Source: Candidatus Pacearchaeota archaeon (GTDB lineage: Archaea > Nanobdellota > Nanobdellia > Pacearchaeales > GW2011-AR1). Taken from it: a DNA stretch of 57,484 nt. Below are positions 20,977-37,845 of the stretch, one piece after another (within the stretch, counting starts at the first letter, position 1; each line of letters starts with the position of its first letter). Location of the stretch: NCBI GenBank assembly GCA_023139205.1, contig JAGLOA010000004.1, forward strand, positions 1 to 57,484, read 5' to 3'. Both the position numbers and the translations under genes were made by a program. The notes under the pieces are model-generated. The model was given only the letters and a program-made list of their open reading frames with translations. It was not told where the DNA came from and did not search any database.

Positions 20977-21534
20977 TCAACAAGATTCTCCTTCAACAAG
21001 CTCTGCTTTTCCACCATCAATCAAAATCTTAGCAATCTCTTTAGGAATATTCGCGATTTGTCCCTTTTCAAAACTCATTTTCTTCCCATCTAAATCTACA
21101 AATTCTTCAACATCTTCAACAAAAACAATTAACTCATTTTGTTTAACTTCTTCTTTTCCATTAAGAATCTCACTTATTTTTTTATCTGAATGATTCACAG
21201 ACCTCATTAAATCCTCAAAAAGATCTTTTTCAAAACTAAACATATTCTCAAAATCTTGTTTTGAAATTCCAGTCTCAGTCGCAATTAAAACTAAATTTAA
21301 AATCTTCTTTCTTCTCCTCAACATAATTTCCTTAAAGAGAGTTAAAGCATTTTCAAGTTGTTTTTTAGCTTTTATAACTACATCAGAAAAAACATCTTCC
21401 TCATTTGAAGAAACATCTTTTTTTTCTTTTAAATAATTAGCCACATCTAAAACAAAATTTTTAGGAATTGGTTGCAATTGTTCAGAATATCTTTCTTTTC
21501 TCGCAGCTTCATAAATTTCATTATAAGTTATCAT
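20977..21534 (-). CDS. DNA replication complex GINS family protein (Gins51-like)
   Basis: MITYNEIYEAARKERYSEQLQPIPKNF; RRRKKILNL; C-terminal B domain FVDLDG...FEKGQIANIP...AKILIDGGKAELV. Confidence 0.8.
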   Translation of the reverse strand: MITYNEIYEAARKERYSEQLQPIPKNFVLDVANYLKEKKDVSSNEEDVFSDVVIKAKKQLENALTLFKEIMLRRRKKILNLVLIATETGISKQDFENMFSFEKDLFEDLMRSVNHSDKKISEILNGKEEVKQNELIVFVEDVEEFVDLDGKKMSFEKGQIANIPKEIAKILIDGGKAELVEGESC

Positions 21535-21592
21535 CTTTTAAGCAATAATATCTAATTTTTAATGATTGCTGTGATTAACAAATACAAATTAT

Positions 21593-22000
21593 TTACGCAT
21601 AACCAGAAATCCCAGTAAAATTTCCACGCACTTCTAAATTAAATGTAGTCAAAAATTTATTCAATTCATCAAAAGTCTTCTTATCAATTATTTTTTGGGC
21701 ATACAACTCTTCAAAAACCCCTTTTAAAAAAAGTTTAAAGTCTTTATTAAAAAAAGCTACATTCTTTTCTTTAATTACTTCATTAAAAACACCATACAAA
21801 ATTTCTAAATCAGAATCAAATAAAATCGGATACCTCAACAATAATTTATTGAATTTTGCATCTACTTTTTCAAGTTTTCTTTTAGATATAAAATCTTCTT
21901 TATCCTCTAATAAAGAGGATTCTAATTCTCTTTTTTCAAAATAAAAACTAATAAAATCTCTCATAAATTTTTTATCTTTTTTACTAATCTTTTTTTCCAT
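21593..22000 (-). CDS. hypothetical protein, paralog of 22050-22443
   Basis: Shares FNKDFKLFLKGVFEELYAQKIIDKK..F.ELN.FLTTF.LE with the neighbouring ORF. Confidence 0.7.
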   Translation of the reverse strand: MEKKISKKDKKFMRDFISFYFEKRELESSLLEDKEDFISKRKLEKVDAKFNKLLLRYPILFDSDLEILYGVFNEVIKEKNVAFFNKDFKLFLKGVFEELYAQKIIDKKTFDELNKFLTTFNLEVRGNFTGISGYA

Positions 22001-22476
22001 TTTATCTCACAAACCCAACTTTCTTTAATAATTTCATCCTAAAAGATAATTAAAAGCCCAGACCAGCTCCAGCAGTTTCTCCAGGACCCATTTTACGAGA
22101 CTCTAAATGAAATGTAGTCAAAAATCTATTCAATTCATTAAAAATTTTCTTATCGATTATTTTTTTGGCATACAACTCTTCAAAAACCCATTTTAAAAAG
22201 AACTTAAAAGATTCATTAAAAAAATAACCTTCCCTTTCCTTATCTTTAGCGACCTTATTAAAAACTTTATATAAGAGATTTAAATCCTTAAATAAAAAAC
22301 CATAATTAGGTAACATGCTATTTAATTTTTTATTTGCTTCTTCCAAACTCTTCTTATCTTTGTTAAATTCTGAATCAATACCCTCAAGGTAAGTATTAAT
22401 AAATTCTTCAATAAATTTCCTCTCTTTTTTGTTTTTTTTCCATTTTATCTCACAAACCCAACTTTCTTTAATAATT
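21991..22476. repeat. perfect 43-bp direct repeat of the apgM 3' end, 443 bp apart
   Basis: TTTTTTCCATTTTATCTCACAAACCCAACTTTCTTTAATAATT at 21991-22033 and 22434-22476. Confidence 0.9.
22050..22443 (-). pseudogene. paralog of 21593-22000 with its ATG out of frame through an A8 run
   Basis: ATG at 22443 followed by GA8C; removing one A gives MEKNKKERKFIEEFINTYL..., aligning with MEKKISKKDKKFMRDFISFYF of the paralog. Confidence 0.65.
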
Positions 22477-23686
22477 CTCCTCCAACCATACGCCCCAAAG
22501 TCCCTTTTTTTGCTTCTTTTTCATTAAATTTTTTCTCTTTTGGAATTGAATCATTATAAAATAAAACAGGAACAGGATCTGCTGAATGATTCTTAAGATT
22601 ACAGGGTGTTGAATGATCTGCAGTCACAACAACTTTAATTTTATTTGGAGGAGCAAATTTTCTCAAAAACTTAAAAAAAGTTTTATCAATATACTCTAAC
22701 ATTAACTTCTTTTCAAAAGGTTTATTATCATGCCCAGGAGTATCTGTTTCTTTCAGATGTATGTAAGCATAATCCACGTTTTTATAATTTTTTTTCAAAA
22801 TTTTAATTGAAAACTTACAGGCTTTTGCTAAACCCTCATAAAGATTTGCATAAGCATCTAAATTCCTTAATTTAGGGTATTCAAAAGAAAAATTTTTCAT
22901 ACCACAAACTCTTGAAAAACCAATTTCCAAAGGCATGTAATTAGCTGAAATCCATCCAGCATAGGATTTTAATTTAGGGATTTCAATTCCTGCACCCCTT
23001 ATAAAAAGATAATTCGCAGGCAGCAATCCTCTTTTTTTTCTTTCTTTATTCAAAGGATGTTCATTCAAAACTTCGTGAGCTCTTTCTAAAAATTCATTAA
23101 CAATATTAGCAGAATATTGAGAATTTTCGTCATCATCCAAAGCTTTACAAAAACCAATCTTATCTATCCTTCTAGATTTTCCCTGATGATAAGTCGCATC
23201 ATTACCTAAAATATTATCTGAAAAACCCCCTCTAAAAACTAAAACAGCCCTATGTTGAATTGTTGGTTTAAAAACAAATTCACAGGGAAGCTTTATTTTA
23301 TTCAATGCTTTAGAAAGAACATCTGCTTCTTGATTTGTCAGAGTTCTCCCTACTCTCCTATCAAGAATATTTCCTTCCTCAAAGGAATCAATTGTCGCGA
23401 AATTAACTCTCAAGGCCAAATCCCCTCTTGTCAATTTAATATCTGTACCTCTTACCTCTAATTGTCCTCTTGTACTAGAAATTAAATCATTACCAAAAAT
23501 AGAAACAATTGCCTCATCTGATTCAGGGATAAATCCCGGCCTAACAGAATACAGATATCCCATTTCTCCTCTGGTAGCTAAAAAATCCAGATTAGGAGTA
23601 TATGCAACTTCCAAAGGAGTTTTCTCACCAAATTGCTTACAAGGTAAATCACCTATTCCATCCAAAATAACAAAAATTCCTTTCAT
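22445..23686 (-). CDS. apgM: 2,3-bisphosphoglycerate-independent phosphoglycerate mutase (archaeal type)
   Basis: ILDGIGD...KTPLE.A.TPNLD, PESD, HLKETDTPGHD, TADHSTPC...HSADPVP. Confidence 0.92.
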   Translation of the reverse strand: MKGIFVILDGIGDLPCKQFGEKTPLEVAYTPNLDFLATRGEMGYLYSVRPGFIPESDEAIVSIFGNDLISSTRGQLEVRGTDIKLTRGDLALRVNFATIDSFEEGNILDRRVGRTLTNQEADVLSKALNKIKLPCEFVFKPTIQHRAVLVFRGGFSDNILGNDATYHQGKSRRIDKIGFCKALDDDENSQYSANIVNEFLERAHEVLNEHPLNKERKKRGLLPANYLFIRGAGIEIPKLKSYAGWISANYMPLEIGFSRVCGMKNFSFEYPKLRNLDAYANLYEGLAKACKFSIKILKKNYKNVDYAYIHLKETDTPGHDNKPFEKKLMLEYIDKTFFKFLRKFAPPNKIKVVVTADHSTPCNLKNHSADPVPVLFYNDSIPKEKKFNEKEAKKGTLGRMVGGELLKKVGFVR

Positions 23687-23861
23687 TTGATAAATTTCCT
23701 ATTTAGCGAATGAATACAAAAATTCCCTGTTTTTGCTTTCATTCAAAATAACCTCCAAATCTTTTTGAATGAATGAAAAATCTTCCTCTGGACCTACTTG
23801 GTTGATTTACTTTCATAAATTTAACAAGACTCTCTTCTTTATAAAAATTTATATCTAAGAA

Positions 23862-24533
23862 TTAAATTTTCAAATCATACTCAAAAACTTTATCATAAGG
23901 AATAAACCATTTTATTGCATCCTCTCTAGAAACATTCTCCATAATCTTTCTAAACAAACGAATAGAATTACCATGAGCAGAAATTGCGACATTAACTTTA
24001 TGCTTTTTCATAAAATTCTTCAGATAAACAATAAACTTCTTAACTCTTTTTTCAACATCTGCAAAAGACTCTCCATTTGGTGCCGCAACATCATACCCTC
24101 TATGAATTGCTTCATATTCTTCTTCCCCAAAAAATTTCTCCACTTTATTTCTGAATTTTGGTTCTAAATTTTCAATAGCATCCCCCTCAATTCTCAAATC
24201 ATAAGAACGTTTTCCTATTTTTTCAATAAATTGTCTATGTGTAGTTCCTTCTAAATCCCCATAACTTCTTTCAATCATTCTATCATCAATAATAATTTTT
24301 TTACATTCAGAATGAAATTTTAAAACATAGTTCAAAGTCTGTTTAGAACGTGGTAAACTTGTATGAAAAGCAACCTGAATTTTCTTATCCCTTAATTTCT
24401 TAGATATCTTTTTTGCATCTCTTTTCCCTCTTAAAACTAATCTTGTATGTTTATGCCCACAAAAAAGTCCATTAACATTATAAACAGTTCTTCCATGCCT
24501 AAACAGATAAATCTTAAACACCTTCTTTTTCAT
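23862..24533 (-). CDS. histidine phosphatase family protein, dPGM-like
   Basis: FRHGRT, ERSYGDLEG, APNGESFADV.KRV, ISAHGNSIR. Confidence 0.85.
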   Translation of the reverse strand: MKKKVFKIYLFRHGRTVYNVNGLFCGHKHTRLVLRGKRDAKKISKKLRDKKIQVAFHTSLPRSKQTLNYVLKFHSECKKIIIDDRMIERSYGDLEGTTHRQFIEKIGKRSYDLRIEGDAIENLEPKFRNKVEKFFGEEEYEAIHRGYDVAAPNGESFADVEKRVKKFIVYLKNFMKKHKVNVAISAHGNSIRLFRKIMENVSREDAIKWFIPYDKVFEYDLKI

Positions 24534-24622
24534 AAAACATAAAACAAAAATTTCTTTATAAAAATTTGGATTTCAAAAATCAATAAAGAAAATATTATAA
24601 ATCTCCAAACACTAAAGAAAAC

Positions 24623-25795
24623 ATGTTTAAATTTTTAAAAGATAAAATAGGAAAATGGGCAAAAAAAGTCTCTGAAAAAACAGAAATAAAAGAAAAACCA
24701 AAAGAAATAGAAACTCCTGTAAAAATAAATCTAAAAGAACAGACATCTAAACAAGATTTAGAAAAAGAAATTAATGAAAAAAAAGTTGAAACTAAAAAAG
24801 AAGTTAAAATTCCTGTAAAATTTAATGCAGGAACACATGCATATGAACCAGATTTAGAAAAGTTAGAAGAAATCAAAAAAGAAGAAGAAACCCCCGAACC
24901 AGGAAAAAAAGGATTTTTCAAAAAAATAACTTCAAAAATAAACAAGGTAAAAATTTCTGAAAAAGAATTTGAAGTTTATTCTGAAGAACTTGAAATGTTG
25001 CTTTTAGAAAATAACGTAGCTTTAGAAGTAGCAGAAAAAATGATTAAAGAATTAAAAGAAAAAATAATCGGAAAAGAACTTTTGAAAAAAGAAGTTGAAG
25101 GAGAAATAAAAGATTGTTTCAAAGAAATAATTGAAGAAATTTTAATAGATCCTTTTGATTTAGTTGAAAAAATTAAAGAGAAAATCTCTAACCAAAAAAA
25201 AGACCCTTATGTGATTTTATTTTGTGGGATAAATGGGACAGGAAAAACAACAACATTGGCTAAAATTGCAGATTCTTTAAAAAGTAAAAAAATTTCTTGT
25301 GTAATTGCTGCAGCAGACACTTTTAGAGCAGCCTCAATAGAACAAATAAAAGAACATGGAGAAAAAATAGGAGTAAAAGTTGTGTCTCAAGAATATGGTT
25401 CTGACCCTGCAGCAGTAGGATTTGATGCAATAAAATATGCAAAAAAGAATTTCATAAATTGCGTTTTAATTGATACAGCCGGAAGAATGCACACTTCAAA
25501 AAACTTGTTAAAAGAAATTGAAAAAATTTCAAGAGTCTGCAAACCAGATACAAAAATATTCGTTGGGGAAAGTATAACTGGAAATGATGTTATAGAACAG
25601 GCAAAAAGTTTTGACTGGGAAATTGGAATTGACGGAGTGGTCTTAACAAAAGCAGATATTGATGAAAAAGGCGGCACAGCTTTGTCAGTAGGTTATATAA
25701 CAAAAAAACCAATTCTTTATTTAGGTACAGGTCAGGCCTATGACAAGATAGAACCCTTTGACAAGCAAAAATTCATAGAAAAATTAGGATTGTGA
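24623..25795 (+). CDS. ftsY: SRP receptor FtsY
   Basis: GINGTGKTTT, AADTFRAA, DTAGRM, TKAD.D.KGG, GTGQ.Y; K/E-rich N-terminal region. Confidence 0.95.
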   Translation: MFKFLKDKIGKWAKKVSEKTEIKEKPKEIETPVKINLKEQTSKQDLEKEINEKKVETKKEVKIPVKFNAGTHAYEPDLEKLEEIKKEEETPEPGKKGFFKKITSKINKVKISEKEFEVYSEELEMLLLENNVALEVAEKMIKELKEKIIGKELLKKEVEGEIKDCFKEIIEEILIDPFDLVEKIKEKISNQKKDPYVILFCGINGTGKTTTLAKIADSLKSKKISCVIAAADTFRAASIEQIKEHGEKIGVKVVSQEYGSDPAAVGFDAIKYAKKNFINCVLIDTAGRMHTSKNLLKEIEKISRVCKPDTKIFVGESITGNDVIEQAKSFDWEIGIDGVVLTKADIDEKGGTALSVGYITKKPILYLGTGQAYDKIEPFDKQKFIEKLGL

Positions 25796-25933
25796 ATTTT
25801 TGTGCAGTCTATATGATTTCTCCAGAGGAAATTGGAAATCACCGTTCAGTGTTTTGGGGGAAGGTTCTAAAGGAAACCAGCCGGTTTCTTTTATTTTGAC
25901 AAACAAAAGTTCATAGAAAAACTTGGATTATGA
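25757..25933. mobile_element. 99-nt hairpin module flanked by synonymously recoded copies of the ftsY 3' end
   Basis: 25757-25795 and 25895-25933 both encode FDKQKFIEKLGL*; 34/39 nt identical, all 5 differences synonymous. Confidence 0.8.
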
Positions 25934-25983
25934 AAGACCATCTAAATCTTTAAAAATAAGGGATTTCTTTCAATCAATAGAAA

Positions 25984-26988
25984 ATGAACGATGATGAACC
26001 TCCTGATTCAAGAACGAATTCTCTAGAAAGAAAATTAACAACAATAATAGTCCAAAAAAACACAGAACCTCTACTCTCTCCAAAGATGCTTAAAGGGAAA
26101 TATAGTTCTATTAGAAATCCTGGAGCATTTACTTATAAAGATAAAATTGGATTGCTTTGCACAGTAAGATATTCTTCAGATAATAAATGCAGATTACATC
26201 TAGCATGGAGTGAAAATGGGAAAGATTTTAGTCTTGAAGAAAATCCATTCATAGATTTAGACCCGGATGCACAAGAAGGAGTAGAAGATTCAAGAGTTTC
26301 AAAAATCGGAAAAGAATATTTTATTACATTCACTGCCTATAAAGGGTATGAAAACAAAGCAAACACAACTAGGGTGGGGCTTATAAAAACAAAAAATTTC
26401 AAATCTTTTTTTGAAAGAAAAATTATACTTGATGAGCATAGAAATAATAAAAATTCATTAATTTTTGAGCATGAAGGGACTCCATGGATAATTGACAGAA
26501 AATTTAGAGGGGATGGAAATGATGAATTTTCTCCAGGGGCAAGAATAGCAAGAATAAAAAACTTAGAAAAAACAGAAATTGAAGAATTCAAACCTTTTTT
26601 AATGCCAAGAAAAGAAAAATGGGATAATGCAAGAACTGGTGTAAACACCCCTCCCATAAAAATGAAACATAAAATTTACGGGGATATTTTATTTATGTTA
26701 TATCATGGGGCAAGTAAACAAGGAAACAGATATCAAATGGGATATGTTATATTAGACGGTAAAAACCCAAACAAAATTTTAGAAAGATCAATAGAACCTC
26801 TTCTCTCCACAGAATTAGATTGGGAAATAGGAAGAGGAAAATATCCTGCAGAAGTAGGAAATGTAGTGTTTGGTTGCGGGGCAATTCCTATAGGAAAAAA
26901 CAAAATAAGAGCATATTATTCAGGAGGAGACAGATATCCTGGATTTGCAGACCTAACAATCAAAAACACAAAAATTAAAGAACAATAA
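25984..26988 (+). CDS. GH130-like glycosidase/phosphorylase (five-bladed beta-propeller)
   Basis: RNPGA, GVEDSRV, NNKN, WDNARTGVNTPP, YHG, NVVFGCGA, YYSGGD. Confidence 0.8.
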   Translation: MNDDEPPDSRTNSLERKLTTIIVQKNTEPLLSPKMLKGKYSSIRNPGAFTYKDKIGLLCTVRYSSDNKCRLHLAWSENGKDFSLEENPFIDLDPDAQEGVEDSRVSKIGKEYFITFTAYKGYENKANTTRVGLIKTKNFKSFFERKIILDEHRNNKNSLIFEHEGTPWIIDRKFRGDGNDEFSPGARIARIKNLEKTEIEEFKPFLMPRKEKWDNARTGVNTPPIKMKHKIYGDILFMLYHGASKQGNRYQMGYVILDGKNPNKILERSIEPLLSTELDWEIGRGKYPAEVGNVVFGCGAIPIGKNKIRAYYSGGDRYPGFADLTIKNTKIKEQ

Positions 26989-27058
26989 TCACAAAACAAA
27001 GATTAATAAAAAACCAAAAAGATTAAAAAGGATTAAAGATAGTATTAACTACTATACA

Positions 27059-27658
27059 ATGGCAATAAAAGGAGCTTTTCAAATGGTTGCAGGATACAGA
27101 ATATTCCTTCTTCATAATGATAATATCTCTGAAGTCCACTCTTTCATTAAAGAAGAACATTGTACAGAAAGTGGGATTGAAGAAGAAGTCCTAAATGAAA
27201 AAAGAGGCGAACTAATCCTAATCCTAAAAGACATTAGGGACAGCGATAATCCTGACAGAGTTAGAGGCTTTGTAGACTGTTTATACAACAATTCTACAAA
27301 AGGAGAAAAAACTCCTCAAAACTTATCTGACTTAGAAAGGGGTTACTTTTTAAAATTCAAACAAGATCCTTTCCATAATTACTTAATTATAAAAGAAGGT
27401 GCAGATAATGTATTGTCCTTAAAGGAACAAGCAGGACTATCACTTTCCTTGTTTTGCTCACGTAAAAACATAAACGAAGATTATAAACATCATGAGAATG
27501 ACCTATGTATAAAATGGATAGATGAAAACGGAGGAAAATTCAGTGAAATTTTTAGAGAAAGTTATATAGAAAAATTAAGTAGAAAACCTTACAAAGTTTA
27601 CAAAAATCTTGAAAGGAATATTTCTAAACTTATTGAAAAAAGAAGTCAACAACCATGA
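27059..27658 (+). CDS. hypothetical protein
   Basis: 199-aa ORF filling the intergenic space; no recognised motif. Confidence 0.6.
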   Translation: MAIKGAFQMVAGYRIFLLHNDNISEVHSFIKEEHCTESGIEEEVLNEKRGELILILKDIRDSDNPDRVRGFVDCLYNNSTKGEKTPQNLSDLERGYFLKFKQDPFHNYLIIKEGADNVLSLKEQAGLSLSLFCSRKNINEDYKHHENDLCIKWIDENGGKFSEIFRESYIEKLSRKPYKVYKNLERNISKLIEKRSQQP

Positions 27659-27721
27659 CCATAAAATCTTTTATAACTAAGAAACCCAAAATTTATTAAC
27701 CATACTTTTACTCAGTATTCT

Positions 27722-29089
27722 ATGCTAGAAAAATTAGGAGAAGTTTTAAGAAAAGCCACAGACAAAATAGCAAATGCTATATTCTTAGACAAAAACCTTG
27801 TTGATTCTATAATCAGAGATTTACAAAGAGCTTTAATTGAAGCAGATGTAAATGTTATTTTAGTCAAGCAAATTAGTGATAAAATAAAAAAAGCTGCTGT
27901 AGATGAAAGAATCAAAGGGATAGATAAAAAAGAACACATAATAAAATTATTACATGATGAACTTAAAAAAATTCTTGGAGAATATAAACAGCTAAAATTA
28001 CAGCCAAAACAAAATAAAATTATGCTCTTAGGTTTATATGGAGCAGGAAAAACAACAACAATCGCAAAACTAGGAAATTATTTTGCAAAACGGGGAAAGA
28101 AAGTAGCATTAATTGGATTAGATGTCCACAGACCAGCTGCACCAGAACAACTAAAACAACTTGCAGAAAAAAATAAACTTACTTGCTTTATAGATTTAAA
28201 AGAAAAAGACCCTCTGAAAATTTGGAAAAAATATGAAAAAGAACTAAAAGATTATGATTTAATTTTAATAGATACTGCAGGAAGACACAATCTTGACAAA
28301 GAACTAGTTAAAGAAATAAAAGAATTAGGAAAGAAAATAAAACCAACAGAAACGATTTTAATAATGCCTGCAGATATTGGGCAAGCAGCAAAAACACAAG
28401 CACAAGAATTCAAAGACGCTGTAAATATCTCTGGAGTAATTATTACAAGAATGGACTCAACTGCAAAAGGAGGGGGAGCTTTAACAGCCTGTGCAGAAAC
28501 ACAAGCTCCGGTTTATTTCATAGCAACAGGTGAAAAAATAAATGATCTGGAAGAATTTGACCCTGAACGTTTCCTTTCAAGACTTTTGGGCATGGGGGAC
28601 TTACAATCTTTAATTGAAAAAATAAAATCAGTTACAGATGAAACCCAGCAACAAAAAATTCAAAAAAAATTAGAAGAAGGAAAATTAAGTTTAGATGATG
28701 TTATCGAGCAAGTAAAATCAATGAATCAATTAGGAGGACTTGATAAAATAAAATCCATGATTCCTGGTATGGGAAATGCAAAAATTCCTGAAAATGTTTT
28801 AGGAACTCAGGAAGAAAAAATAAAAAAATGGGAGCACATTGTGAAATCAATGACTCAGGAAGAAAAAGAAAATCCAGAAATATTAGAAAAACAAACTTCA
28901 AGGATGGCAAGGATTGCAAAAGGTTCAGGAGTTCACACAAGCGACGTGAGATCTCTGCTAAAACAATACAAAATGCTTAATGAAATGATAAAAGGTGGAG
29001 CAGATATGGACATGTCACAAGGAATGAGCCAAAAACAAATGATGAAATTTGCAAAGAAATTTATGAAAGGAAAAAAGATGAGATTTTAA
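27722..29089 (+). CDS. ffh: signal recognition particle protein SRP54/Ffh
   Basis: LQRALIEADVN, GLYGAGKTTT, DTAGRH, TRMDSTAKGGGALT, Met-rich M domain. Confidence 0.96.
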   Translation: MLEKLGEVLRKATDKIANAIFLDKNLVDSIIRDLQRALIEADVNVILVKQISDKIKKAAVDERIKGIDKKEHIIKLLHDELKKILGEYKQLKLQPKQNKIMLLGLYGAGKTTTIAKLGNYFAKRGKKVALIGLDVHRPAAPEQLKQLAEKNKLTCFIDLKEKDPLKIWKKYEKELKDYDLILIDTAGRHNLDKELVKEIKELGKKIKPTETILIMPADIGQAAKTQAQEFKDAVNISGVIITRMDSTAKGGGALTACAETQAPVYFIATGEKINDLEEFDPERFLSRLLGMGDLQSLIEKIKSVTDETQQQKIQKKLEEGKLSLDDVIEQVKSMNQLGGLDKIKSMIPGMGNAKIPENVLGTQEEKIKKWEHIVKSMTQEEKENPEILEKQTSRMARIAKGSGVHTSDVRSLLKQYKMLNEMIKGGADMDMSQGMSQKQMMKFAKKFMKGKKMRF

Positions 29090-29128
29090 AAAGATTATTT
29101 TTAAAATTATAAAAAGTTTAATTTTTAT

Positions 29129-29695
29129 TTATGCTTCATATGTTATTGTTATCCAACCCCGATTATAAGGATCATCATATTCTTCAGAATCAAAATTAGA
29201 ATTCTCAAAAAATCCTCCTGTGAATCTACTTATTAAAATACGATTACTAGTAGTATCTCCAATAGATCCACCTTTCGTTAGCTCAACACTATCACCCAAT
29301 AAAATCGGATAAATCCTAGTATTAGCATCATCTCTTATTATAACGTCTATACTTCTAATTTTAAAATAATTAACCCCAAGCCCATGATCAACCCCCGAAC
29401 CAAATGAAGAAACCATATTCCAATCACCAATTTCAATAACTTTTGTTTTCAAAACAATATTATCTGTTTTTATCCCATCATTGAAAACAGCAACTCCATC
29501 AACTCCCCCACTTAAATCAAGTTCTTCAGCACTATGTCCTACAACAGAAGCAGGTCCTCCAGAGTTATAAGCATAAACTCCAACACCAACTACAGCTAAA
29601 ACTCCAATTACAATCAAAGTATAAAACAATCTGTTAGAAAAATTTATCTGAAGTTTTCCTATTTTAATTTTCTTCACCATCTTTATTAAAAACAT
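29129..29695 (-). CDS. membrane-anchored hypothetical protein
   Basis: N-terminal TM (LFYTLIVIGVLAVVGVGVYA) followed by a beta-rich domain. Confidence 0.6.
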   Translation of the reverse strand: MFLIKMVKKIKIGKLQINFSNRLFYTLIVIGVLAVVGVGVYAYNSGGPASVVGHSAEELDLSGGVDGVAVFNDGIKTDNIVLKTKVIEIGDWNMVSSFGSGVDHGLGVNYFKIRSIDVIIRDDANTRIYPILLGDSVELTKGGSIGDTTSNRILISRFTGGFFENSNFDSEEYDDPYNRGWITITYEA

Positions 29696-29712
29696 TAAAG
29701 AATTGTTCTTTT

Positions 29713-30066
29713 TTAAATATTCCTCTCATCTAAAAAATCTTTAAATTCCTTCTTCAACCATTGTTCACATTTCTCTAAATATTTAGGAGAACTCTTTCCT
29801 GAATCATTCAAAATAAATAAATCTTCATTACAACCATAAGGAGATGGAGAACTTTCATAAAGCAAATAAACATCACTTTCTACATGAAATTTTATATGTT
29901 CACTCTTTTCTTTTAAAGAAGGATATGAAACAACCCCTAATTCCCCAGAATTAATTAATTTATTTAACCTTTTTTCTAAAGCCGAATTTGGATTGTCTTT
30001 TGAACCTATATGTCCCTGATAAGCTATAACTCTCTTCTTGATCATATCTCCATTAAATAAACTCAT
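29713..30066 (-). CDS. hypothetical protein
   Basis: 117-aa ORF, no recognised motif. Confidence 0.55.
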   Translation of the reverse strand: MSLFNGDMIKKRVIAYQGHIGSKDNPNSALEKRLNKLINSGELGVVSYPSLKEKSEHIKFHVESDVYLLYESSPSPYGCNEDLFILNDSGKSSPKYLEKCEQWLKKEFKDFLDERNI

Positions 30067-30119
30067 GAATATAAGAAAATAACTAAGTTTTTAAGCAAAT
30101 CCCTATTCAAGAATATATA

Positions 30120-30554
30120 TTAAATTTTTAGCCTTTTTTTAAGAGCTTCTAAGAAAAAACTTGGAATAGATATTGGTTCTTCTTTTGAAACATCAACAAA
30201 AAGATCTTGTGTTTGTGCAGTAAAAACTAATTCCTGAGAATCATTAAAAAACTGAAAATCCATTTGAAAAAAAGGATTCTTAATTTTAGTTATCTTTAAA
30301 TCAACCTTAAAATTATCTCCATACTTCAAAGATCTTCTGTAAGTAAGATCAAAAAATCTTCTCCTTGTATAAGCAATGTTTTTCTCTTTCCTAAAAAATG
30401 CATCACTCCAACCAAACTGCTTTAAAAATTCTGCCCGAACATACTCACAATATTGAAAATAATCTGCATTATTAAGATGTTCATTACGATCGTTTTTATG
30501 AGATACTTCCAAGTTAAAACTACCTTCATAAAGCAATTCCCCTAATTCTTTCAT
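30120..30554 (-). CDS. acyl-CoA thioesterase, 4HBT/YbgC hot-dog family
   Basis: DRNEHLNNADYFQYCEYVR resembles the DxxGHVNNxxYxxYxExxR motif. Confidence 0.8.
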   Translation of the reverse strand: MKELGELLYEGSFNLEVSHKNDRNEHLNNADYFQYCEYVRAEFLKQFGWSDAFFRKEKNIAYTRRRFFDLTYRRSLKYGDNFKVDLKITKIKNPFFQMDFQFFNDSQELVFTAQTQDLFVDVSKEEPISIPSFFLEALKKRLKI

Positions 30555-30642
30555 AATAAATTTGTAAAATAAAAGTTTTTAAGTTTTATTATATTCAAAA
30601 TAAAATCAATAATCTTATAAATAAAAAAGAACAAGAAAAACT

Positions 30643-30849
30643 ATGGAAATAAAAATAATTTTAGAAGAGCAAAAAGAAGGAGGATACACAACTTATGTGC
30701 CTTCTTTGCCAGGATGCACCTCCCAGGGAGAAACAATTGAAGGAGCACTAAAAAACATTAAAGAAGCAATTGAATTATATCTAGAAGCAGATGAAAATGA
30801 ACTTATTATTTACAAAGACAATGTAAAAACAGAAACAATCACAATATGA
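30643..30849 (+). CDS. hicB: HicB family antitoxin
   Basis: EGGYTTYVPSLPGCTSQGETIEGALKNIKEAIELYLE. Confidence 0.9.
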   Translation: MEIKIILEEQKEGGYTTYVPSLPGCTSQGETIEGALKNIKEAIELYLEADENELIIYKDNVKTETITI

Positions 30850-31064
30850 AAATTCCTCAGATTTCTGGAAAAGAATTAATAAAAAAACTGCGTAAATTTG
30901 GTTTTGTTGTGACAAGGCAAAAAGGTTCTCATATAAGATTAGAAAAAAACACTGAAAACAAAACCATCAAAATCACAATCCCCAACCACCAAATTCTCAA
31001 AAAAGGAACTTTAAACCAAATCATTAAATCAATAGGGTTAACTGCTGAGGAAATTTTTTCTTGA
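30846..31064 (+). CDS. hicA: HicA family toxin (mRNA interferase)
   Basis: ISGKELIKKLRKFGF...RQKGSHIRL...IPNHQILKKGTL; ATGA overlap with hicB. Confidence 0.9.
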   Translation: MKIPQISGKELIKKLRKFGFVVTRQKGSHIRLEKNTENKTIKITIPNHQILKKGTLNQIIKSIGLTAEEIFS

Positions 31065-31124
31065 ATAAAATGAGCCAAAAGCAAATGATGAAATTTATAA
31101 AAAGTAAAAAAATTAAGTTTTAAG

Positions 31125-31580
31125 ATGAACCGAAAAGAAAAGTTAGATTGGTATAAAGAAGAATTTGATAAGATTTGTAAAATTATTCACAACAAAAAAG
31201 AATTATCTTATCTTGATTTCTTAAGAATTAGAAATTTTAAATTACAAAATTCTACAATTGAAGAGGAAAAGAATATTAAAGAGATTACATCTAAAGCATT
31301 TGAATTAGCAAAAAAAGATAAAATTGAAGGATCAATAAAAGAATTGCTCAAATTAAATGGTGTAGCCATACCCATTGCATCTACAATTCTTGCTATGAAA
31401 TTTCCAGAAAAATATGCTATAATTGACAGAAGAGTTATAAAACAATTAAACAAACCCGAATGGATGAAAGATTATTTAAAAAATCCAAAAACTTACAAGG
31501 AATATATTTTAGCAATGAGAAAAACCAAACCTATCAATTTATCTTTAAGAGATTATGAAAGGAGTTTATTTGAAAAATGA
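31125..31580 (+). CDS. hypothetical protein with HhH-like motif
   Basis: LLKLNGVAIPIASTIL...YAIIDRRV resembles a helix-hairpin-helix followed by D, as in HhH-GPD glycosylases. Confidence 0.55.
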   Translation: MNRKEKLDWYKEEFDKICKIIHNKKELSYLDFLRIRNFKLQNSTIEEEKNIKEITSKAFELAKKDKIEGSIKELLKLNGVAIPIASTILAMKFPEKYAIIDRRVIKQLNKPEWMKDYLKNPKTYKEYILAMRKTKPINLSLRDYERSLFEK

Positions 31581-32272
31581 CATCACAAAAAAATTGTTTG
31601 CATGTGGCATCCATCGGAGGCAATTAAAAGATGCCACCGTTCAGTGCTTCGAGGAGAGAGCGCGAGAGAAATCAACGGGTTCTCTCGCAGGGTGCAGAAG
31701 CAAAAATAATTCTTTCAGGAAATTCAATCATAAAAGATAGAATAAAAAAATCATACAGAATCCCAGAACTTGATGAAAAAATTAGAAAATTAAGAACTCG
31801 TTCAGAAACAAAACTTCTTACAAAAGCATCTGAAATAATTAATTGTCCTAAACCTCAAGAACTAAAAGAATTTGATAAAATAAAAATGCCTTTTATCGAC
31901 GGCAAAAAACTTTCAGAACATTTAGATAACTTTCCCTTAAAACAACAAAAACAAATTTGCAATCAACTTGGAGAAGCAATTGCAAAACTTCACGACAATA
32001 ATATAATTCATGGAGATTTAACAACATCAAATATGATTCTAAAAAATGAAGAAGTTTATTTTATTGATTTCGGATTAGGATTTATAAGTCACAAATATGA
32101 AGACAAAGCAGTTGATTTGCATTTACTAAAACAAGCCTTAGAAGCAAAACATTTTCAAAATTACAAAGAACTTTTAAAAGAAGTTTTCAAAGCCTATAAA
32201 AAATCCAAAGACTCTAAAATTGTTTTTGAAAGATTAAAGGCAGTTGAAAAAAGAGGCAGATATAAACACTAA
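31577..32272 (+). CDS. bud32: KEOPS kinase Bud32, 5' end interrupted by a structured insert
   Basis: QGAEA, K.RIKKSYR..ELD..IR..RT..E, IIHGDLTTSNMI, IDFGLG, EDKAVDL; ATG 31577 overlaps upstream stop (ATGA) but in-frame TAA at 31625; alternative ATG at 31631. Confidence 0.9.
31592..31688. mobile_element. hairpin module homologous to the ftsY insert
   Basis: TGGCATC/GATGCCA stem, then CCGTTCAGTG, then GCGAGAGAA/TTCTCTCGC hairpin; same layout as 25796-25894. Confidence 0.75.
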
Positions 32273-33019
32273 CTATTTCTTCTTACCCTCAAAAGCCCTA
32301 AGAATTTCTAAAGGAAGTCCTAAAACAACAGTATTGCTTTTATCAGAACTTAAATCATTAAGAGTTTGCAATGTTCTCAAATGTAATGCTCCTGGCGCAC
32401 TTGCAAGAGTTTTCGCAGCTTTTGCCATATCAGTAGCAGCAATTACCTCTCCTCCAGCCTTAATAATCACCGCCCTTTTTTCCCTCTCAGCTTCAGCCTC
32501 TTTCCCTATTGTCCTCTTTAATTGCTCAGGGAGCTCAACATGCTTTAACTCAACTGAATTAACTTTTATCCCCCAAGGATCTGTTGCCTTATCCACAATC
32601 TCTCTAATCCTTTTTGAAACAGAATCTCTCTGACTCAATAACTCATCCAAAGAAACCTCTCCAATAACATCTCTCATAGTAGTCTGAGCTAATTGTGAAA
32701 CAGCATAATTAAAATCCTCAACCTCAAGGATTACTTTCTGAGAATCAACCACCTTATAATACAAAACAGCATTAACTTTAAGCGAAACATTATCTCTTGT
32801 AATAGAATCCTGGTCAGGAACATCTATTACTTTAACACGGATATCAACTCTTCTCCAGGTCTGTATGACTGGGACAACAATCCTCAAACCTGGCTTCATA
32901 ATCCCAACATATTTTCCAAAAGTAAATTTAACTCCTCTTTCATATTCTTTAACAACCTTTAATCCAGACAAAATAAAAACCACAACTAATCCAAGAATAC
33001 CAAATAAACTAAATACCAT
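32273..33019 (-). CDS. SPFH/band 7 (stomatin-like) protein
   Basis: EYERGVKFTFGK...PGLRIVVPVI...QDSITRDNVSL...AQTTMRDVIG...AEAEREKRA...LHLRTLQTL. Confidence 0.92.
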   Translation of the reverse strand: MVFSLFGILGLVVVFILSGLKVVKEYERGVKFTFGKYVGIMKPGLRIVVPVIQTWRRVDIRVKVIDVPDQDSITRDNVSLKVNAVLYYKVVDSQKVILEVEDFNYAVSQLAQTTMRDVIGEVSLDELLSQRDSVSKRIREIVDKATDPWGIKVNSVELKHVELPEQLKRTIGKEAEAEREKRAVIIKAGGEVIAATDMAKAAKTLASAPGALHLRTLQTLNDLSSDKSNTVVLGLPLEILRAFEGKKK

Positions 33020-33069
33020 TCACAAATATAAAATCAGGGATATATAAAACTTATGGGAAAAATTTGTTA

Positions 33070-33182
33070 AATAGCTCCTCCAGGATCCTCGAAGAGGTCT
33101 TGTCCCTCCTTGGGATTCTCGTGCTGGGAGCATTAGCGAGGCAATATCGAACCTTGGTTCGAATCAATAGCCCCACCAGGAT
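33070..33182. mobile_element. short multi-hairpin insert flanked by duplicated tRNA-Gln 3' end
   Basis: Minus strand ATCCTGGTGGGGCTATT (tRNA end) vs ATCCTGGAGGAGCTATT 96 nt downstream; four short hairpins between them. Confidence 0.65.
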
Positions 33183-33292
33183 TCGAACCTGGGTCCCAGC
33201 CTTACTTCAAGCTCCAAAGGAATTGGAGTAATGAAAGATGCAAGCATCTTACTTTCAAAGGGCTGAATACTTGACCACTGTACTATGGGGCT
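33168..33292 (-). tRNA. tRNA-Gln(TTG) with 52-nt intron at 37/38 (33203-33254)
   Basis: AGCCCCA/TGGGGCT acceptor, CAGCC-CTTTGA[intron]A-GGCTG, CCAGG-TTCGAAT-CCTGG; CTTT pairs with intron GAAG as a BHB-like central helix. Confidence 0.88.
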
Positions 33293-33325
33293 ATAATACT
33301 TAAGAAATTATATAATTTATAAGGT

Positions 33326-34117
33326 TTACTCAAACGCCCTTTCATAAAAAAGAGCCCGGTTAATATCTTGTTTTGGAGGGTTAACCCATCTAAAAAAATT
33401 CCTTAATTTAACAGGTTTGTATTTTTCTCCAATTAAAGTTGCTGCAAGTTTATTGTATTCTTCACTTGCATTAGAATTAGGATTATGGATAGTAGAGGGA
33501 GTAAATTCAGACAAAGCTTTCAAAACATTGAGATCATGGGGAATAACTGCCAGAACAGGGACTTCAACTGTTTTCTCAATATCTCTTAAAGAAACTTCAA
33601 ATTTTTTATTATTAACTTTATTTAAGATTAAACCAGTAATTGGTGTTCCTCTTTTCCTTGCATTTCTAACTGCTTTAATTGTAGTCCCCAAAGTAGGATA
33701 ATCAGGAGTAGTCACCACAAAAAGTTCATCAGAAGCCAACATTACTGCCAAAGTCTCATCATTTAAAGCAGGAGAAGAATCAATAAGAATGATATCATAT
33801 TTTTTCTTCAAAAATTTAATTCTATCTTTTAATTTCAAAGGATTTATCTCTTTTCTGTAATACATAGAAGAAGGAATCAAATCAAAATTATCTAATTCAT
33901 GAACAGCCTCGGTAACATTGTTCTCTCTATTCAAAACATGGTGAAGAGTTATCTCAGGGTCAAAAACATTTAAATGCAAACCAAGATTTGGAGCTGAAAG
34001 ATTTCCATCAACTAACAAAACTTTTTTATTAAATCTCGAAAGAGAAGCTCCTAAAGAAGAAACAACAGAAGTTTTCCCAACCCCTCCTTTAAGTGAAATA
34101 ATGCCGATAGTTTTCAC
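33326..34117 (-). CDS. MinD/ParA family ATPase
   Basis: KGGVGKT deviant Walker A, LLVDGNL, IILIDSSP, VTTPD. Confidence 0.88.
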   Translation of the reverse strand: MKTIGIISLKGGVGKTSVVSSLGASLSRFNKKVLLVDGNLSAPNLGLHLNVFDPEITLHHVLNRENNVTEAVHELDNFDLIPSSMYYRKEINPLKLKDRIKFLKKKYDIILIDSSPALNDETLAVMLASDELFVVTTPDYPTLGTTIKAVRNARKRGTPITGLILNKVNNKKFEVSLRDIEKTVEVPVLAVIPHDLNVLKALSEFTPSTIHNPNSNASEEYNKLAATLIGEKYKPVKLRNFFRWVNPPKQDINRALFYERAFE

Positions 34118-34244
34118 TTTAATTTCTCCTGAAATTTTCTCAAGCTAAGAATCTCTATCACCTTTCTCATTAAATCAATAAGCAATTTTTATTTAAATAT
34201 CTTTCATTAGTAAGATTTAAAAGACAAGATTACAACTTAATAAA

Positions 34245-34595
34245 ATGCCAAAAAAAGTTGAAGAAAAAACAGAAGAAAAAAAGAAAGCAAAACCAAAAAA
34301 ACTTTCCATAGCAGAATTTGAAAAAAAAGTAATAGAATTAGTTGGGAAAGGGCTTACAAGTGAAAAAATAGGTGAAGAATTAAAAAAACAGGGAATTCAT
34401 TCAAAAGACTATAACAAAAAAATCTCTAAAATTCTAGGAGAAAAATACATTAACCCAGATTTAAAAAATGTTGAAAACAAATTAGAAAGAATAAAGAAAC
34501 ATTACGAGAACAATAAGCAAGATAAAAGAGCAATGAGAGAAAAAGATAGAATATTTGCACAACTTAGAAAACTAAAAAAATATTTTAAGATTTGA
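34245..34595 (+). CDS. rps15: 30S ribosomal protein S15 (S13e family), short form
   Basis: VIELVGKGLTSEKIG..LK.QG...PDL.N...I.KH...NKQDKRAMR; precedes DHH gene. Confidence 0.8.
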   Translation: MPKKVEEKTEEKKKAKPKKLSIAEFEKKVIELVGKGLTSEKIGEELKKQGIHSKDYNKKISKILGEKYINPDLKNVENKLERIKKHYENNKQDKRAMREKDRIFAQLRKLKKYFKI

Positions 34596-34624
34596 ACTTT
34601 CTATCTAAAAAACTATTTTTAAAA

Positions 34625-35962
34625 ATGGAAAAAGAGGTAAATTCGCTAGAAAGAGAAATAAAATCTGTAGCCAAAAAATTTCTTGAAAAATCCAAGGACA
34701 AAAAAATTCAGGTTATAAGCCACTTTGATACAGACGGCATTACTTCTGCAGCAATAATGATTCAAACCCTCAAAAAATTAGATAAAACATTTACTGTAAA
34801 AATAGTGAAAAGCCTCGAAGAAGAATTAATAAAAAAACTACCAAAAGACAAATTAACTTTATTTTTAGATTTAGCTTCAGGAAGTTTAAACCATATTTCT
34901 GATGCAAAATTAGAAGATGTTTTTATAATAGATCATCACGAAATTATCCAGGAAATTCCCCCAGAAATAAATATTATAAATCCTGAATTAAAAGATAAAC
35001 AAAAAATAAGCGGTTCAAGTTTAACCTATTTATTTTGCAAAGAACTAAATCCAAAAAATCAAGAATCTGCAAAATTAGCAATATTGGGGATGATTGGAGA
35101 TTGTATGGAAAAAGAAATAGATAAACTAAATCATGATATCTTAAATGACGGAGAAGTAAAAAGAAAAAGAGGACTTTTAATTTATCCGTCGACAAGACCC
35201 CTAAACAGAACTTTAGAATATTGTTCTAAACCATATATCCCAGGAGTTACCGGAGACACAAAAGGAGCTTTAGAATTATTAAGAGAAATTGGACTAAACC
35301 CTAAAGAAGGCAAATACAAAAGTCTCATAGAACTGGATGAAAAAGAAATGTCAAAGTTAGTTACTGCAATAATATTAAGAAATCCAAAAGTAAAAAATAA
35401 AGAAATAATAGGAGATATTTTTTTAATAAAATTGTTCAATAAACTCGAAGATGCAAGAGAATTAAGTGCGATGATTAATGCTTGTTCCAGACTAGGAGAA
35501 AGTGGATTGGCAATCCAGCTTTGCATGGAAATTTCAAAAGCCAAGAAAAAAGCAAAATCAATTTATGTCAAATACAAACAATTAATTGTATCAGGATTAA
35601 AATTTGCTTCAGAAACAGAAAAAATACAGGGAGAAGGATTTACAATAATAAACGCTAAAGACAAAATAAAAGACACAGTAATAGGAACAATCGCAAGTAT
35701 TTTATCTTATTCTTCAATTTACAAAGAAGGGACAATTATTATCGCCATGGCATATTACAGCAATAAAATAAAAATCTCTGCAAGAAATGTTGGAAGAACC
35801 GGAAGAAATGTCAGAGAAATTTTAAACAAAGTTGTGAATGAAATAGGAGGAGAAGTTGGAGGTCATGAATTTGCAGCAGGAGGCATGATTTCTCAGGAAA
35901 AAGAACAGGAATTTATTAATCTTCTAAAAAAGAATCTTGAAATAGAATTAATTAAAGTTTAA
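34625..35962 (+). CDS. DHH family phosphoesterase (RecJ-like)
   Basis: SHFDTDGITS, LDLASG, IIDHH, GMIGD, SARN, GGHEFAAG; start placed at MEKEV. Confidence 0.9.
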   Translation: MEKEVNSLEREIKSVAKKFLEKSKDKKIQVISHFDTDGITSAAIMIQTLKKLDKTFTVKIVKSLEEELIKKLPKDKLTLFLDLASGSLNHISDAKLEDVFIIDHHEIIQEIPPEINIINPELKDKQKISGSSLTYLFCKELNPKNQESAKLAILGMIGDCMEKEIDKLNHDILNDGEVKRKRGLLIYPSTRPLNRTLEYCSKPYIPGVTGDTKGALELLREIGLNPKEGKYKSLIELDEKEMSKLVTAIILRNPKVKNKEIIGDIFLIKLFNKLEDARELSAMINACSRLGESGLAIQLCMEISKAKKKAKSIYVKYKQLIVSGLKFASETEKIQGEGFTIINAKDKIKDTVIGTIASILSYSSIYKEGTIIIAMAYYSNKIKISARNVGRTGRNVREILNKVVNEIGGEVGGHEFAAGGMISQEKEQEFINLLKKNLEIELIKV

Positions 35963-36552
35963 CTGTATTCATTCTACAAGGGTAAAACTTATAAAAGTTT
36001 CTTATCTCTCAGAGGGATATGGGAATAGTAAAATTATTGACTGGAAAAACATTAAAAAGACATTTTACAGAAGATCCAGGAAATATTAAAGAATTTTTTG
36101 AAATGGTAAAAGAAAAGGGAGAAAAAGATGTAAATGCGAATATAATTGAATATCCAAACCAAACATGGGATATGTTTGATTATAAGATGTGTCCAAGCCA
36201 TCAGAATTGCATAAGGACAAAATATCAATCTTCAACAATCGAATTTATCAAACATGAAAACTACAGCAATCTTGTAGAACCTGTTGAAAATTATAATGGA
36301 ACTAAATATAATATAAAAAGAGGCGATGTTATTAAACATTTTACAATTGAGGAAAAGGATTATTACTCAAAAAAATTTCCAGAACTAAAAATAACACTAC
36401 AAAAAGAGAAGGAAATCCGAGACTCAATTAAAGAACTTACTGAATATTATGAAACTCCCCCAATAAAATTTAAAGGGGTAGAGGATTTCTTTAATTAATT
36501 ATTTATTGATCTTCTAAAAAAGAATCTAGAAATAGAATTAATCAAGGTTTAA
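35911..36552. mobile_element. single-gene insert flanked by recoded copies of the DHH gene 3' end
   Basis: 52-nt copies at 35911-35962 and 36501-36552, 48/52 identical; FINLLKKNLEIELIKV* vs FIDLLKKNLEIELIKV*. Confidence 0.8.
36019..36498 (+). CDS. hypothetical protein (cargo of the DHH-end insert)
   Basis: 159-aa ORF lying exactly between the two DHH-end copies. Confidence 0.65.
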   Translation: MGIVKLLTGKTLKRHFTEDPGNIKEFFEMVKEKGEKDVNANIIEYPNQTWDMFDYKMCPSHQNCIRTKYQSSTIEFIKHENYSNLVEPVENYNGTKYNIKRGDVIKHFTIEEKDYYSKKFPELKITLQKEKEIRDSIKELTEYYETPPIKFKGVEDFFN

Positions 36553-36592
36553 ACACAATAATCCTTAAAAATCATCTTTAATTAAAAAAAGC

Positions 36593-36961
36593 ATGATAAA
36601 TCGTTTAACAATTGATGAATTAGAATTAATCGTAGAGAATGTAGAAAAGTGGAGACTTGGAAAAGATGATTTTTTTCTTGTTGGTTCATTAGAAAATGTA
36701 AAGATAAAAGCAAAACCAAATACAAATTTTACTCCTTCTTATATAAGGATAGAAGCAATATCTACAAAATGGCCTTATGGAAACTTGGCGAGTTATAGTT
36801 CACGATTTGATGATAGAACCCACCAAAAAACAAATGATGAAATAAGAATTGATAGAATTTACTCGAAAATTGAAAAAGCTTACGAAGAACAAAAGAAATT
36901 GGCTATAGAAAACTCTATCTCTAAAACAAGAGATTTAGTGAGAAAACTTCAAGAGAATTAA
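36593..36961 (+). CDS. hypothetical protein
   Basis: 122-aa ORF, no recognised motif. Confidence 0.55.
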   Translation: MINRLTIDELELIVENVEKWRLGKDDFFLVGSLENVKIKAKPNTNFTPSYIRIEAISTKWPYGNLASYSSRFDDRTHQKTNDEIRIDRIYSKIEKAYEEQKKLAIENSISKTRDLVRKLQEN

Positions 36962-37018
36962 TTCTTTTATTAAAGAAGTAATCAATAAATTTAAAACCCC
37001 AAATTATCTCTTCTTTTC

Positions 37019-37726: not shown

Positions 37727-37845
37727 AATTAAGAAAATGTGCAAAATGCAATAATTACACACTAAAAAATAAATGTCCTAAATGTAATGAAAAAACTTCT
37801 GATGCTCACTACAAATTTTCAAAGATAAAAAACGTTTCTAACTAA
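37723..37845 (+). CDS. nop10: H/ACA RNP protein Nop10
   Basis: Manual translation MKLRKCAKCNNYTLKNKCPKCNEKTSDAHYKFSKIKNVSN*; CxxC..YTLK..CPxC; conserved position after eIF2alpha. Confidence 0.8.
   Translation: MKLRKCAKCNNYTLKNKCPKCNEKTSDAHYKFSKIKNVSN

Follow-up and report, generated by a model that had tools for sequence, protein, structure and literature searches.

It has long been an open question how the bulge-helix-bulge (BHB) introns of archaea, and by extension tRNA introns generally, are acquired and how they move. The evidence on BHB intron gain has been indirect, consisting of intron families shared between tRNAs and of tRNA fragments that lie beside integrated elements, and Fujishima and colleagues are said to have described, in 2010, families of 'transposed' tRNA introns in the Thermoproteales. 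We know of no DNA-level insertion signatures described for BHB introns, nor, to our knowledge, has any use as tRNA introns been recognised for MITEs or for elements derived from IS200/IS605. Insertion with a substitute gene end has a precedent among phages: phage 21 and e14 bring one along when they integrate in icd of E. coli. The BHB introns of archaeal tRNAs have been reviewed (PMC4090602, PMC4033280). Where elements of the pNOB8 or SSV type have integrated in archaeal tRNA genes, fragments of tRNAs and newly gained introns stay behind (Sugahara et al. 2012, PMC3293823), and the nearest precedent for the locus described here is the gain of a tRNA intron, together with a stray tRNA 5' fragment, through the integration of a recombinase-bearing element (PMC3293823). 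Splicing endonucleases of DPANN archaea that carry extra loops have been linked to increased disruption of tRNA genes (PMC5829648).

The locus examined for the current report lies in a stretch of 57,484 nucleotides (the "window"; GC content 31%) from a Pacearchaeota-like DPANN archaeon, in which the gene for the SRP receptor, ftsY, is followed by a small structured module and a second copy of its own end. We refer to the module as "M" and to the inserted combination of gene end, linker and M as the "cassette". The element combines features of a mobile BHB intron with those of a miniature integrative element that carries a replacement gene end.

The two ends of ftsY

The features of the ftsY locus are listed below.

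24623..25795, forward strand: ftsY (SRP receptor), called as a complete open reading frame of 390 aa, whose end is copy A
25757..25795, forward strand: copy A, the translated last 12 codons plus TGA, ending exactly at the stop codon
25760..25809, forward strand: hairpin H0, with stems 25760-25762/25807-25809 and 25765-25778/25790-25803 and loop 25779-25789
25796..25809, forward strand: linker x* (ATTTTTGTGCAGTC), 14 nt, complementary to the start of the duplicated segment
25810..25894, forward strand: core of module M, covariance model match of 81.7 bits, E 9e-16
25814-25820/25835-25841, forward strand: hairpin H1 of M, loop ..AGAGGAAATT..
25842-25851, forward strand: invariant motif CCGTTCAGTG of M
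25868-25878/25883-25893, forward strand: hairpin H2 of M, after which comes a T-run
25895..25933, forward strand: copy B, the orphan untranslated ftsY end, continuous with the ancestral downstream DNA
25984..26988, forward strand: GH130 gene (Pfam PF04041), in the same neighbouring position in the relative L002, a synteny that defines the empty site

Homologues of this ftsY have SRP54_N and SRP54 domains and are named FtsY in MAGs of Pacearchaeota and Nanoarchaeota, and the C-terminus F(D/N)KxKFIxxLGL*, conserved in ~115 of 120 of them, is the standard end of FtsY. Copy A (TTTGACAAGCAAAAATTCATAGAAAAATTAGGATTGTGA) and copy B (TTTGACAAACAAAAGTTCATAGAAAAACTTGGATTATGA, 25895-25933) are spaced 99 nt apart in the window, have sharp boundaries, are identical at 34 of 39 positions and both translate to FDKQKFIEKLGL*. 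Their five differences (G/A, A/G, T/C, A/T and G/A) fall in four codons and are all silent, a change of TTA to CTT among them; the chance that five random substitutions in one copy would keep both the peptide and the stop is ~5e-5. A sequence-only reading of this DNA had drawn attention to the duplicated end of 12 residues plus TGA, with its five silent changes, and to a stem TGATTTC/GAAATCA, the CCGTTCAGTG motif and a terminal hairpin between the copies. The coordinates and sequences of the duplication are exactly as it claimed, and the structural elements are real, each being conserved or covarying across the family to which the module belongs.

The syntenic relative L002, whose FtsY is 81% identical and whose downstream neighbour is the same GH130 gene, does not have the 138 nt, and its ftsY stop adjoins directly the sequence found 3' of copy B in the window; 138 nt, one copy of the end plus 99 nt, have therefore been inserted. 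The distribution of the cassette is patchy, for it is also absent from the close relatives L093, L094 and L097 and present at the same junction in L001 and L022, two other genomes. By itself, a pair of similar copies with few differing positions might also be produced by co-assembled strain variants of the ftsY end or by the template and variable repeats of a diversity-generating retroelement (DGR), and we regard an origin of either kind as extremely improbable. A 227-nt region is identical, with zero mismatches, in an independent assembly from a second sample (L099), the window's FtsY protein is identical on six contigs, and the intervening module is a member of a conserved family; because the same architecture is found in the independent MAGs L001 and L022, co-assembly would be a very unlikely explanation. 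The DGR was rejected, in agreement with the sequence-only reading, since the differences are silent and not adenine-specific and no reverse transcriptase (RT) was found on the ORFs at 20977-39055.

Where M lies inside a gene end, the order of parts (as read on the forward strand of the window) is gene, copy A, linker, M, orphan copy B and ancestral flank. Cassettes of this kind occur in ftsY (window, L001 and L022), in the C-terminus of SMC (L013 and L038), in the gene for RNase P p30 (L065), in the 5' end of tRNA-Lys (L005, L011 and L044) and in the 5' end plus promoter of another gene (L019). The duplicated segment, which is found with a subset of the M copies only, is 22-63 nt long, and in each of the three protein families the last base of copy A is that of the stop codon. 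The linker, which can pair with 4-16 nt at the beginning of this segment, is the reverse complement of its first 8-13 nt; its complementarity to copy A beats shuffles in all cassette families but L005 (marginal, p=0.068), and it pairs better with copy A than with copy B wherever the two differ. In the hairpin H0, codons 3-7 of copy A pair with the Leu and stop codons and the linker (14 bp plus 3 bp), the fold of 25760-25909 has z = -3.7, and an H0-type hairpin forms in L001 too. When copy A is left out of the fold, the linker pairs with the start of copy B and thereby closes M; the helix so formed (8-bp stem, 3x2 internal loop, 3-bp helix) does not have the form of a BHB. That a tiny non-coding element is associated here with a replacement gene end, as had been proposed from the sequence, is borne out by the 138-nt insertion relative to L002, by the repetition and structure of the module, and by the recurrence of the design in SMC, RNase P p30 and tRNA-Lys. 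The complementary linker of the cassette, the polarity of the copies as read from L001 and L022, and the main habitat of the module as a tRNA intron on the opposite strand are points beyond that proposal.

Routes by which ftsY expression might reach copy B were tried and rejected. Read-through, frameshift or bypass would have to deal with a copy B that is in frame 0 relative to copy A in the window (138 nt) and in frame +2 in L001 and L022 (137 nt); the ORF of the module reaches copy B in L001 only and is stopped in the window and in L022; and no suitable pairing was found for BHB splicing of the ftsY mRNA from A to B.

The question of which copy matches the ftsY end of relatives that lack the module has no answer in the window itself, where copies A and B are of one allele type, but it has one in L001, whose copy B is identical at 35 of 39 positions to the native ftsY end of the module-less L093. 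In L001 and L022 the two copies differ from each other at 12-13 of 39 positions, with one conservative replacement. The copies A of the window, L001 and L022 are alike at 35-36 of 39 positions, their ftsY bodies being 80-85% identical (for the window and L001, 36/39 and ~85%). Because copy B of L001 resembles the native end of L093 and the copies A are more alike than the gene bodies around them, copy A and the matching linker are best read as travelling with M, and copy B as the displaced native end. When the window differences are polarised with the cassette copy of L001, three of the five fall on copy A and two on copy B, so that the window taken alone would be weaker evidence for constraint on copy B than it appears.

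Differences between A and B, and between the copies B of different genomes, are overwhelmingly silent and include switches of Ser codons from TCN to AGY (P <5e-5 to 4e-4); the exception is RNase P p30 (L065), where three of nine residues differ (P ~0.02). The four SMC copies (A and B from each of L013 and L038) diverge from one another by 21-33%, nearly all of it silent and again with Ser TCN to AGY switches. The SMC bodies of these two genomes are 75% identical, the linker plus M ~89% with compensatory changes in H2, and the homology ends right after copy B. In all six protein cassettes the orphan copies B are complete to the stop, and their differences from genome to genome are like those of coding sequences (P = 4e-4 and 5e-5); their completeness therefore requires either that the insertions be young or that copy B have some function. 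At variable residues, A and B of any one genome are the same (E/E and K/K in ftsY, V/V and I/I in SMC). The duplicates at tRNA-Lys are near-identical, non-coding flank included (22/22 and 23/24), as are those of L019, and these look more like a locally generated target duplication.

The module family and its habitats

One sequence pattern retrieved 18 copies of M in DPANN MAGs and 68 metagenome loci, and an alignment of 18 copies gave an 82-position core; the covariance model likewise has 82 positions. A search with such a model, which the sequence-only reading had suggested, yielded ~78 matches of at least 57 bits, and the family occupies ~57 distinct genomic contexts in MAGs of the Pace-/Woesearchaeota type and in metagenomes, with two copies in the present 57-kb window and up to three within 1.1 kb (L025). 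The core is 82-85 nt long and consists of H1 (GCGATTTC/GAAATCGC, loop ..GGAGGCAATTA), the invariant CCGTTCAGTG, the sequence YTTNGAGGA, and H2 (AAAAGAAACC-AGCG-GGTTTCTTTT). Both hairpins covary, with double compensatory changes at 8 of 17 base pairs in the 18-copy alignment. As to the strand of a functional RNA, cells with G-U and with A-C pairs number ~10 vs 8, which favours neither strand. A search of the window and 37 loci at Rfam 15 gathering thresholds matched tRNA and rRNA only and gave no match for M, an E-value search of 25600-26100 returned chance hits at most, and full-text searches of the literature found no description of the element. Inspection of both strands by eye found no C/D-box, H/ACA or k-turn motifs and no UGAUGA/CUGA arrangement. 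A module-encoded peptide was rejected, the reading frame differing between contexts (ogt vs bud32).

The largest class of M copies consists of canonical introns at position 37/38 of tRNA genes (Glu, Met-CAU, Gly-GCC and others), in which M is inverted relative to its orientation in the window's ftsY. Rfam tRNA matches span M in L010, L048, L052 and L071, and tRNA-Met and tRNA-Gly genes that hold M could also be read by eye; ARAGORN missed the intron-containing tRNAs, and several of the tRNA-Met and tRNA-Gly genes were recognised by neither ARAGORN nor Rfam. The far end of the intron supplies a 4-nt partner for the anticodon loop (CUUU/AAAG, CCCA/UGGG, UUGC/GCAA) with 3-nt bulges, as judged by eye. 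Two other tRNA introns were noted in passing. A tRNA-Gln(UUG) gene in the window (33168-33292, reverse strand), which ARAGORN missed and Rfam found, contains a canonical intron, ~52 nt long and not related to the module. The tRNA-Lys behind the cassette of L011 (1283-1453, reverse strand) also holds a canonical 98-nt intron (GGGCGATTTCGAAACACCTCGATGAAACCGC), a diverged relative of the module at 22.9 bits with the covariance model.

In other copies the precise end of M (..CTTTTA[T/A]) abuts exact gene boundaries. M lies at 5998-6079 of L067, where the 16S SSU gene ends at 5995, at the 3' end of a tRNA in L021, L059, L025 and L073, at tRNA position +1 in L061, and against the ATG of eS1, of TBP and of a KH-like gene, the spacing being constant at these start codons and at tRNA +1. 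At the stop of FtsZ in L006, L033, L050 and L035 the first bases of M, on its other strand, form the TAA (..AG|ATAAAAG..); these four FtsZ genes end ...MSDLGIEV(L/W)(R/D). No motif common to the flanks at the precise end was found across contexts, and the tRNA-intron and boundary copies show no gene-end duplication of the cassette kind. In L024 and L054 a conserved right flank (TGTAGAC.C..AGG.TTGCT...AGCTACCTTT.TTCTTCCTCA) abuts the precise end; here an unannotated gene for a structural RNA, encoded on the other strand, may have its end.

The window holds a second M copy, and two further genomes have M in frame and free of stops within ogt/MGMT, just ahead of the PCHRV active site.

31601..31689 of the window, forward strand: second M copy, sub-family H1 GGCATC/GATGCC, covariance match of 59 bits
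582-708 of L060, reverse strand: M in ogt, a 127-nt variant
2144-2209 of L007: M in ogt, the first ~55 nt of the module

The second copy, recognised by an exact CACCGTTCAGTG at 31640 beside a hairpin with compensatory changes, sits in the 5' end of a gene for a Bud32/RIO-type kinase (ORF 31631-32272; Pfam RIO1, Pkinase), to which it supplies GGAGG-N10-ATG, with the GGAGG at 31616-31620 and the ATG at 31631 that now opens the kinase ORF. A seemingly older ATG at 31577, which overlaps the stop codon of the preceding gene, is separated from the kinase ORF by a TAA within the module; it is already in the same frame, so that removal of the copy says nothing on the frame of bud32. No duplicated gene end accompanies this copy, and its flanks, TTGTTTGC and GCAAAAAT, are able to pair across the module. 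BHB-like pairing was not visible for the ogt copies of L060 and L007, which may be translated as insertions of 17-42 aa. Elsewhere in the window, two adjacent small ORFs on the reverse strand (21593-22000 and 22050-22346) share a stretch of 141 nt at 84% identity and appear to be tandem paralogues with no Pfam match.

Tandem or nested copies of M are found at ~5870-6100 of L044, where the tRNA-Lys 5' end is present in triplicate and a decayed module lies between the repeats; at 484-693 of L068, where two copies follow the 3' end of the 16S gene; at 1897-2054 of L035, where two copies are fused; and at 2443-3545 of L025, where three copies lie within 1.1 kb beside tRNA genes. Such arrangements suggest repeated insertion at the same sites.

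A proposed mobile cassette and the alternatives

Our preferred reading, to which we give a probability of about 0.6, is that the 138-nt ftsY cassette belongs to the non-autonomous mobile elements, homing into conserved genes and carrying a replacement terminus with it. The cassette, made up of the recoded last 12 codons and stop (A), the 14-nt complementary linker and the two-hairpin M of 82-85 nt, would have been inserted 39 nt before the original end of ftsY, which was thereby displaced downstream and is no longer translated. M itself would be a non-autonomous mobile element of DPANN archaea of the Pace-/Woesearchaeota type, its commonest form being the tRNA intron at the canonical position, in which the linker would provide the 4-bp central helix of the BHB splice motif. 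Insertion into an essential, conserved gene would be harmless because the cassette brings its own gene terminus. Passage of the cassette between lineages, possible because the host genes are conserved, might come about by Campbell- or att-like recombination in the short core at the start of the duplicated segment, and it is because of such movement that A and B would be independently evolved alleles with mainly silent differences. Copies of M would persist where they can be removed (the tRNA anticodon loop), between genes, where they are read through in frame, or where they come with a spare terminus. Residence in highly conserved genes (ftsY, SMC, ftsZ, rRNA and tRNA) fits a homing-type spread. 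No recombinase, transposase or RT was recognised by Pfam on the ORFs at 20977-39055 (~4.8 kb upstream and 13 kb downstream), which argues that the element is non-autonomous. Against the preferred reading, neither a circular or excised form nor a polymorphic empty site was seen in the window's own population, the assemblies of which are identical, the analysis brought up no candidate enzyme, and the variable residues shared by A and B within a genome are not predicted by simple import from a foreign donor. The completeness of the orphan copies, the exact coincidence of the end of copy A with the stop, the presence of the linker, for which the reading gives no source, and the near-identical duplicates at tRNA-Lys and in L019 also count against it.

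The duplications might instead be products of primary transposition with a long target-site duplication, an explanation that we consider rather unlikely. M would enter at staggered breaks 22-63 nt apart, fill-in would duplicate the target, and snap-back synthesis at the free end of M would copy the adjacent flank in inverted form to give the linker; only duplications that span a gene terminus would survive, and later allelic recombination with module-less relatives would refresh A or B. The linker is indeed an inverted copy of the flank beside the precise end, the duplicated length varies, the duplicates at tRNA-Lys and in L019 are identical or nearly so into the non-coding flank, both window copies are of the same allele type, and insertions at the same sites are tandem or nested in L044, L068 and L035. 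Transposition alone leaves unexplained a silent divergence of 25-35% with switches between Ser codon families, and it gives no account of a linker that matches A and not B in L001 and L065, of a copy A that ends exactly at the stop in three families, or of the tRNA-intron and boundary copies that lack such a duplication. Alternatively, both ends might be in use, splicing endonuclease and ligase removing M or the segment from A to B from some ftsY transcripts, with B translated from spliced mRNA and A from unspliced mRNA and purifying selection acting on both. The retention of frame and stop by B in six of six cassettes, its silent evolution between genomes, the variable residues that A and B share, the role of M as a bona fide BHB intron in tRNAs and the ability of the linker and the start of B to close M are what this proposal has in its favour. 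We hold it to be highly doubtful: M in ftsY is inverted with respect to the tRNA introns, the closing helix (3x2 internal loop, 3-bp helix) is not a BHB, joining A to B would need the starts of A and B to pair mutually, the frame of B relative to A varies (138 vs 137 nt), and the unspliced mRNA already encodes the full protein.

The module may also supply expression signals. Hairpin H2, which has A- and T-runs on its flanks, resembles a bidirectional terminator, and GAGGAAG-TTCAAAAG is a putative outward promoter, the sequence GAGGAAG-TT(C/T/A)AAAAG lying ~29 nt from the right end of M, which is the distance of the TTTAAAA/TTATAAA boxes of window genes. M might accordingly be mainly a domesticated, portable intergenic signal, whether bidirectional terminator plus outward promoter or small RNA gene, with the duplications as incidental scars. 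The runs beside H2, the TATA-like box distance and the constant spacing at which M abuts tRNA +1 and the ATG of eS1, TBP and the KH-like gene all agree with such a function, which is compatible with mobility and no alternative to it; as the main explanation it is improbable, since it does not account for the tRNA-intron habitat on the other strand, the in-frame ogt copies or the design of the cassette.

Relation to known elements and significance

Like archaeal BHB tRNA introns, most copies of M are at tRNA position 37/38, the tRNA copies have a 4-bp central helix between the anticodon loop and the far end of the intron with 3-nt bulges, and one intron sequence family is found in several different tRNA genes. 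Unlike such introns, M is an 82-nt element of strongly conserved sequence that occurs outside tRNAs as well, on either strand, at gene boundaries and in protein genes, where it comes with a duplicated gene end and no evident BHB. The family as such thus includes copies within tRNAs, on the transcribed strand and at 37/38, whereas the ftsY copy lies past a stop codon on the opposite strand and does not form the two 3-nt bulges and 4-bp helix that the tRNA copies show by eye.

With integrative elements that carry a replacement end the cassette shares an inserted substitute terminus with mainly silent differences, a displaced native end that stays behind as an orphan direct repeat (20-60 nt), conserved target genes and the tRNA 5' fragment that is left; as in att duplication, a direct repeat of the terminus flanks the insert and the copy on the element restores the gene. 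It is unlike them in that the whole M element is ~100 nt and has no integrase, in that its targets are many, each with its own replacement end, and in that its target-complementary linker forms a hairpin with that end. MITEs and the palindrome-associated elements derived from IS200/IS605 resemble M in being short, non-coding, multi-copy and non-autonomous, and M has hairpins near both ends, one precise end, tandem or nested copies and many non-coding copies per genome. Terminal inverted repeats, a short target duplication of fixed length and a conserved target tetranucleotide (for IS200/IS605, a motif of 4-5 nt abutting one end) are lacking in M, and no association of M with TnpA or TnpB was seen. 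Homing introns, inteins and free-standing homing endonuclease genes likewise reside at conserved sites of essential genes, are found in some close relatives and not in others, and the coding sequence at their flanks shows silent differences between alleles with and without the element. M differs from these in having neither an endonuclease ORF nor a self-splicing ribozyme, and in duplicating its flank instead of simply replacing it.

One conserved 82-nt sequence inhabits three kinds of site, namely the anticodon loops of dozens of tRNAs, the exact boundaries of genes, and protein genes that are essential. Its copies in protein genes leave footprints that can be read in the DNA: the terminus is duplicated, the linker is inverted and one end is precise. 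Cassettes of this kind create apparent duplicated gene ends and long tRNA introns, by which gene and tRNA callers are misled on DPANN genomes. The spare end would be a minimal way for a selfish element to inhabit essential genes in the absence of intein, ribozyme or nuclease. More speculatively, and with the odds in our estimate somewhat against it, the canonical tRNA introns of these DPANN archaea might be copies of a DNA-level mobile element whose linker is written from the target or pairs with it in guide-like fashion, and by which anticodon loops, gene boundaries and, with a recoded terminus, the ends of essential genes have been colonised. If true, this mobile-intron reading would provide the first concrete mechanism, and a tractable model, for the origin and spread of archaeal introns of the splicing-endonuclease type.
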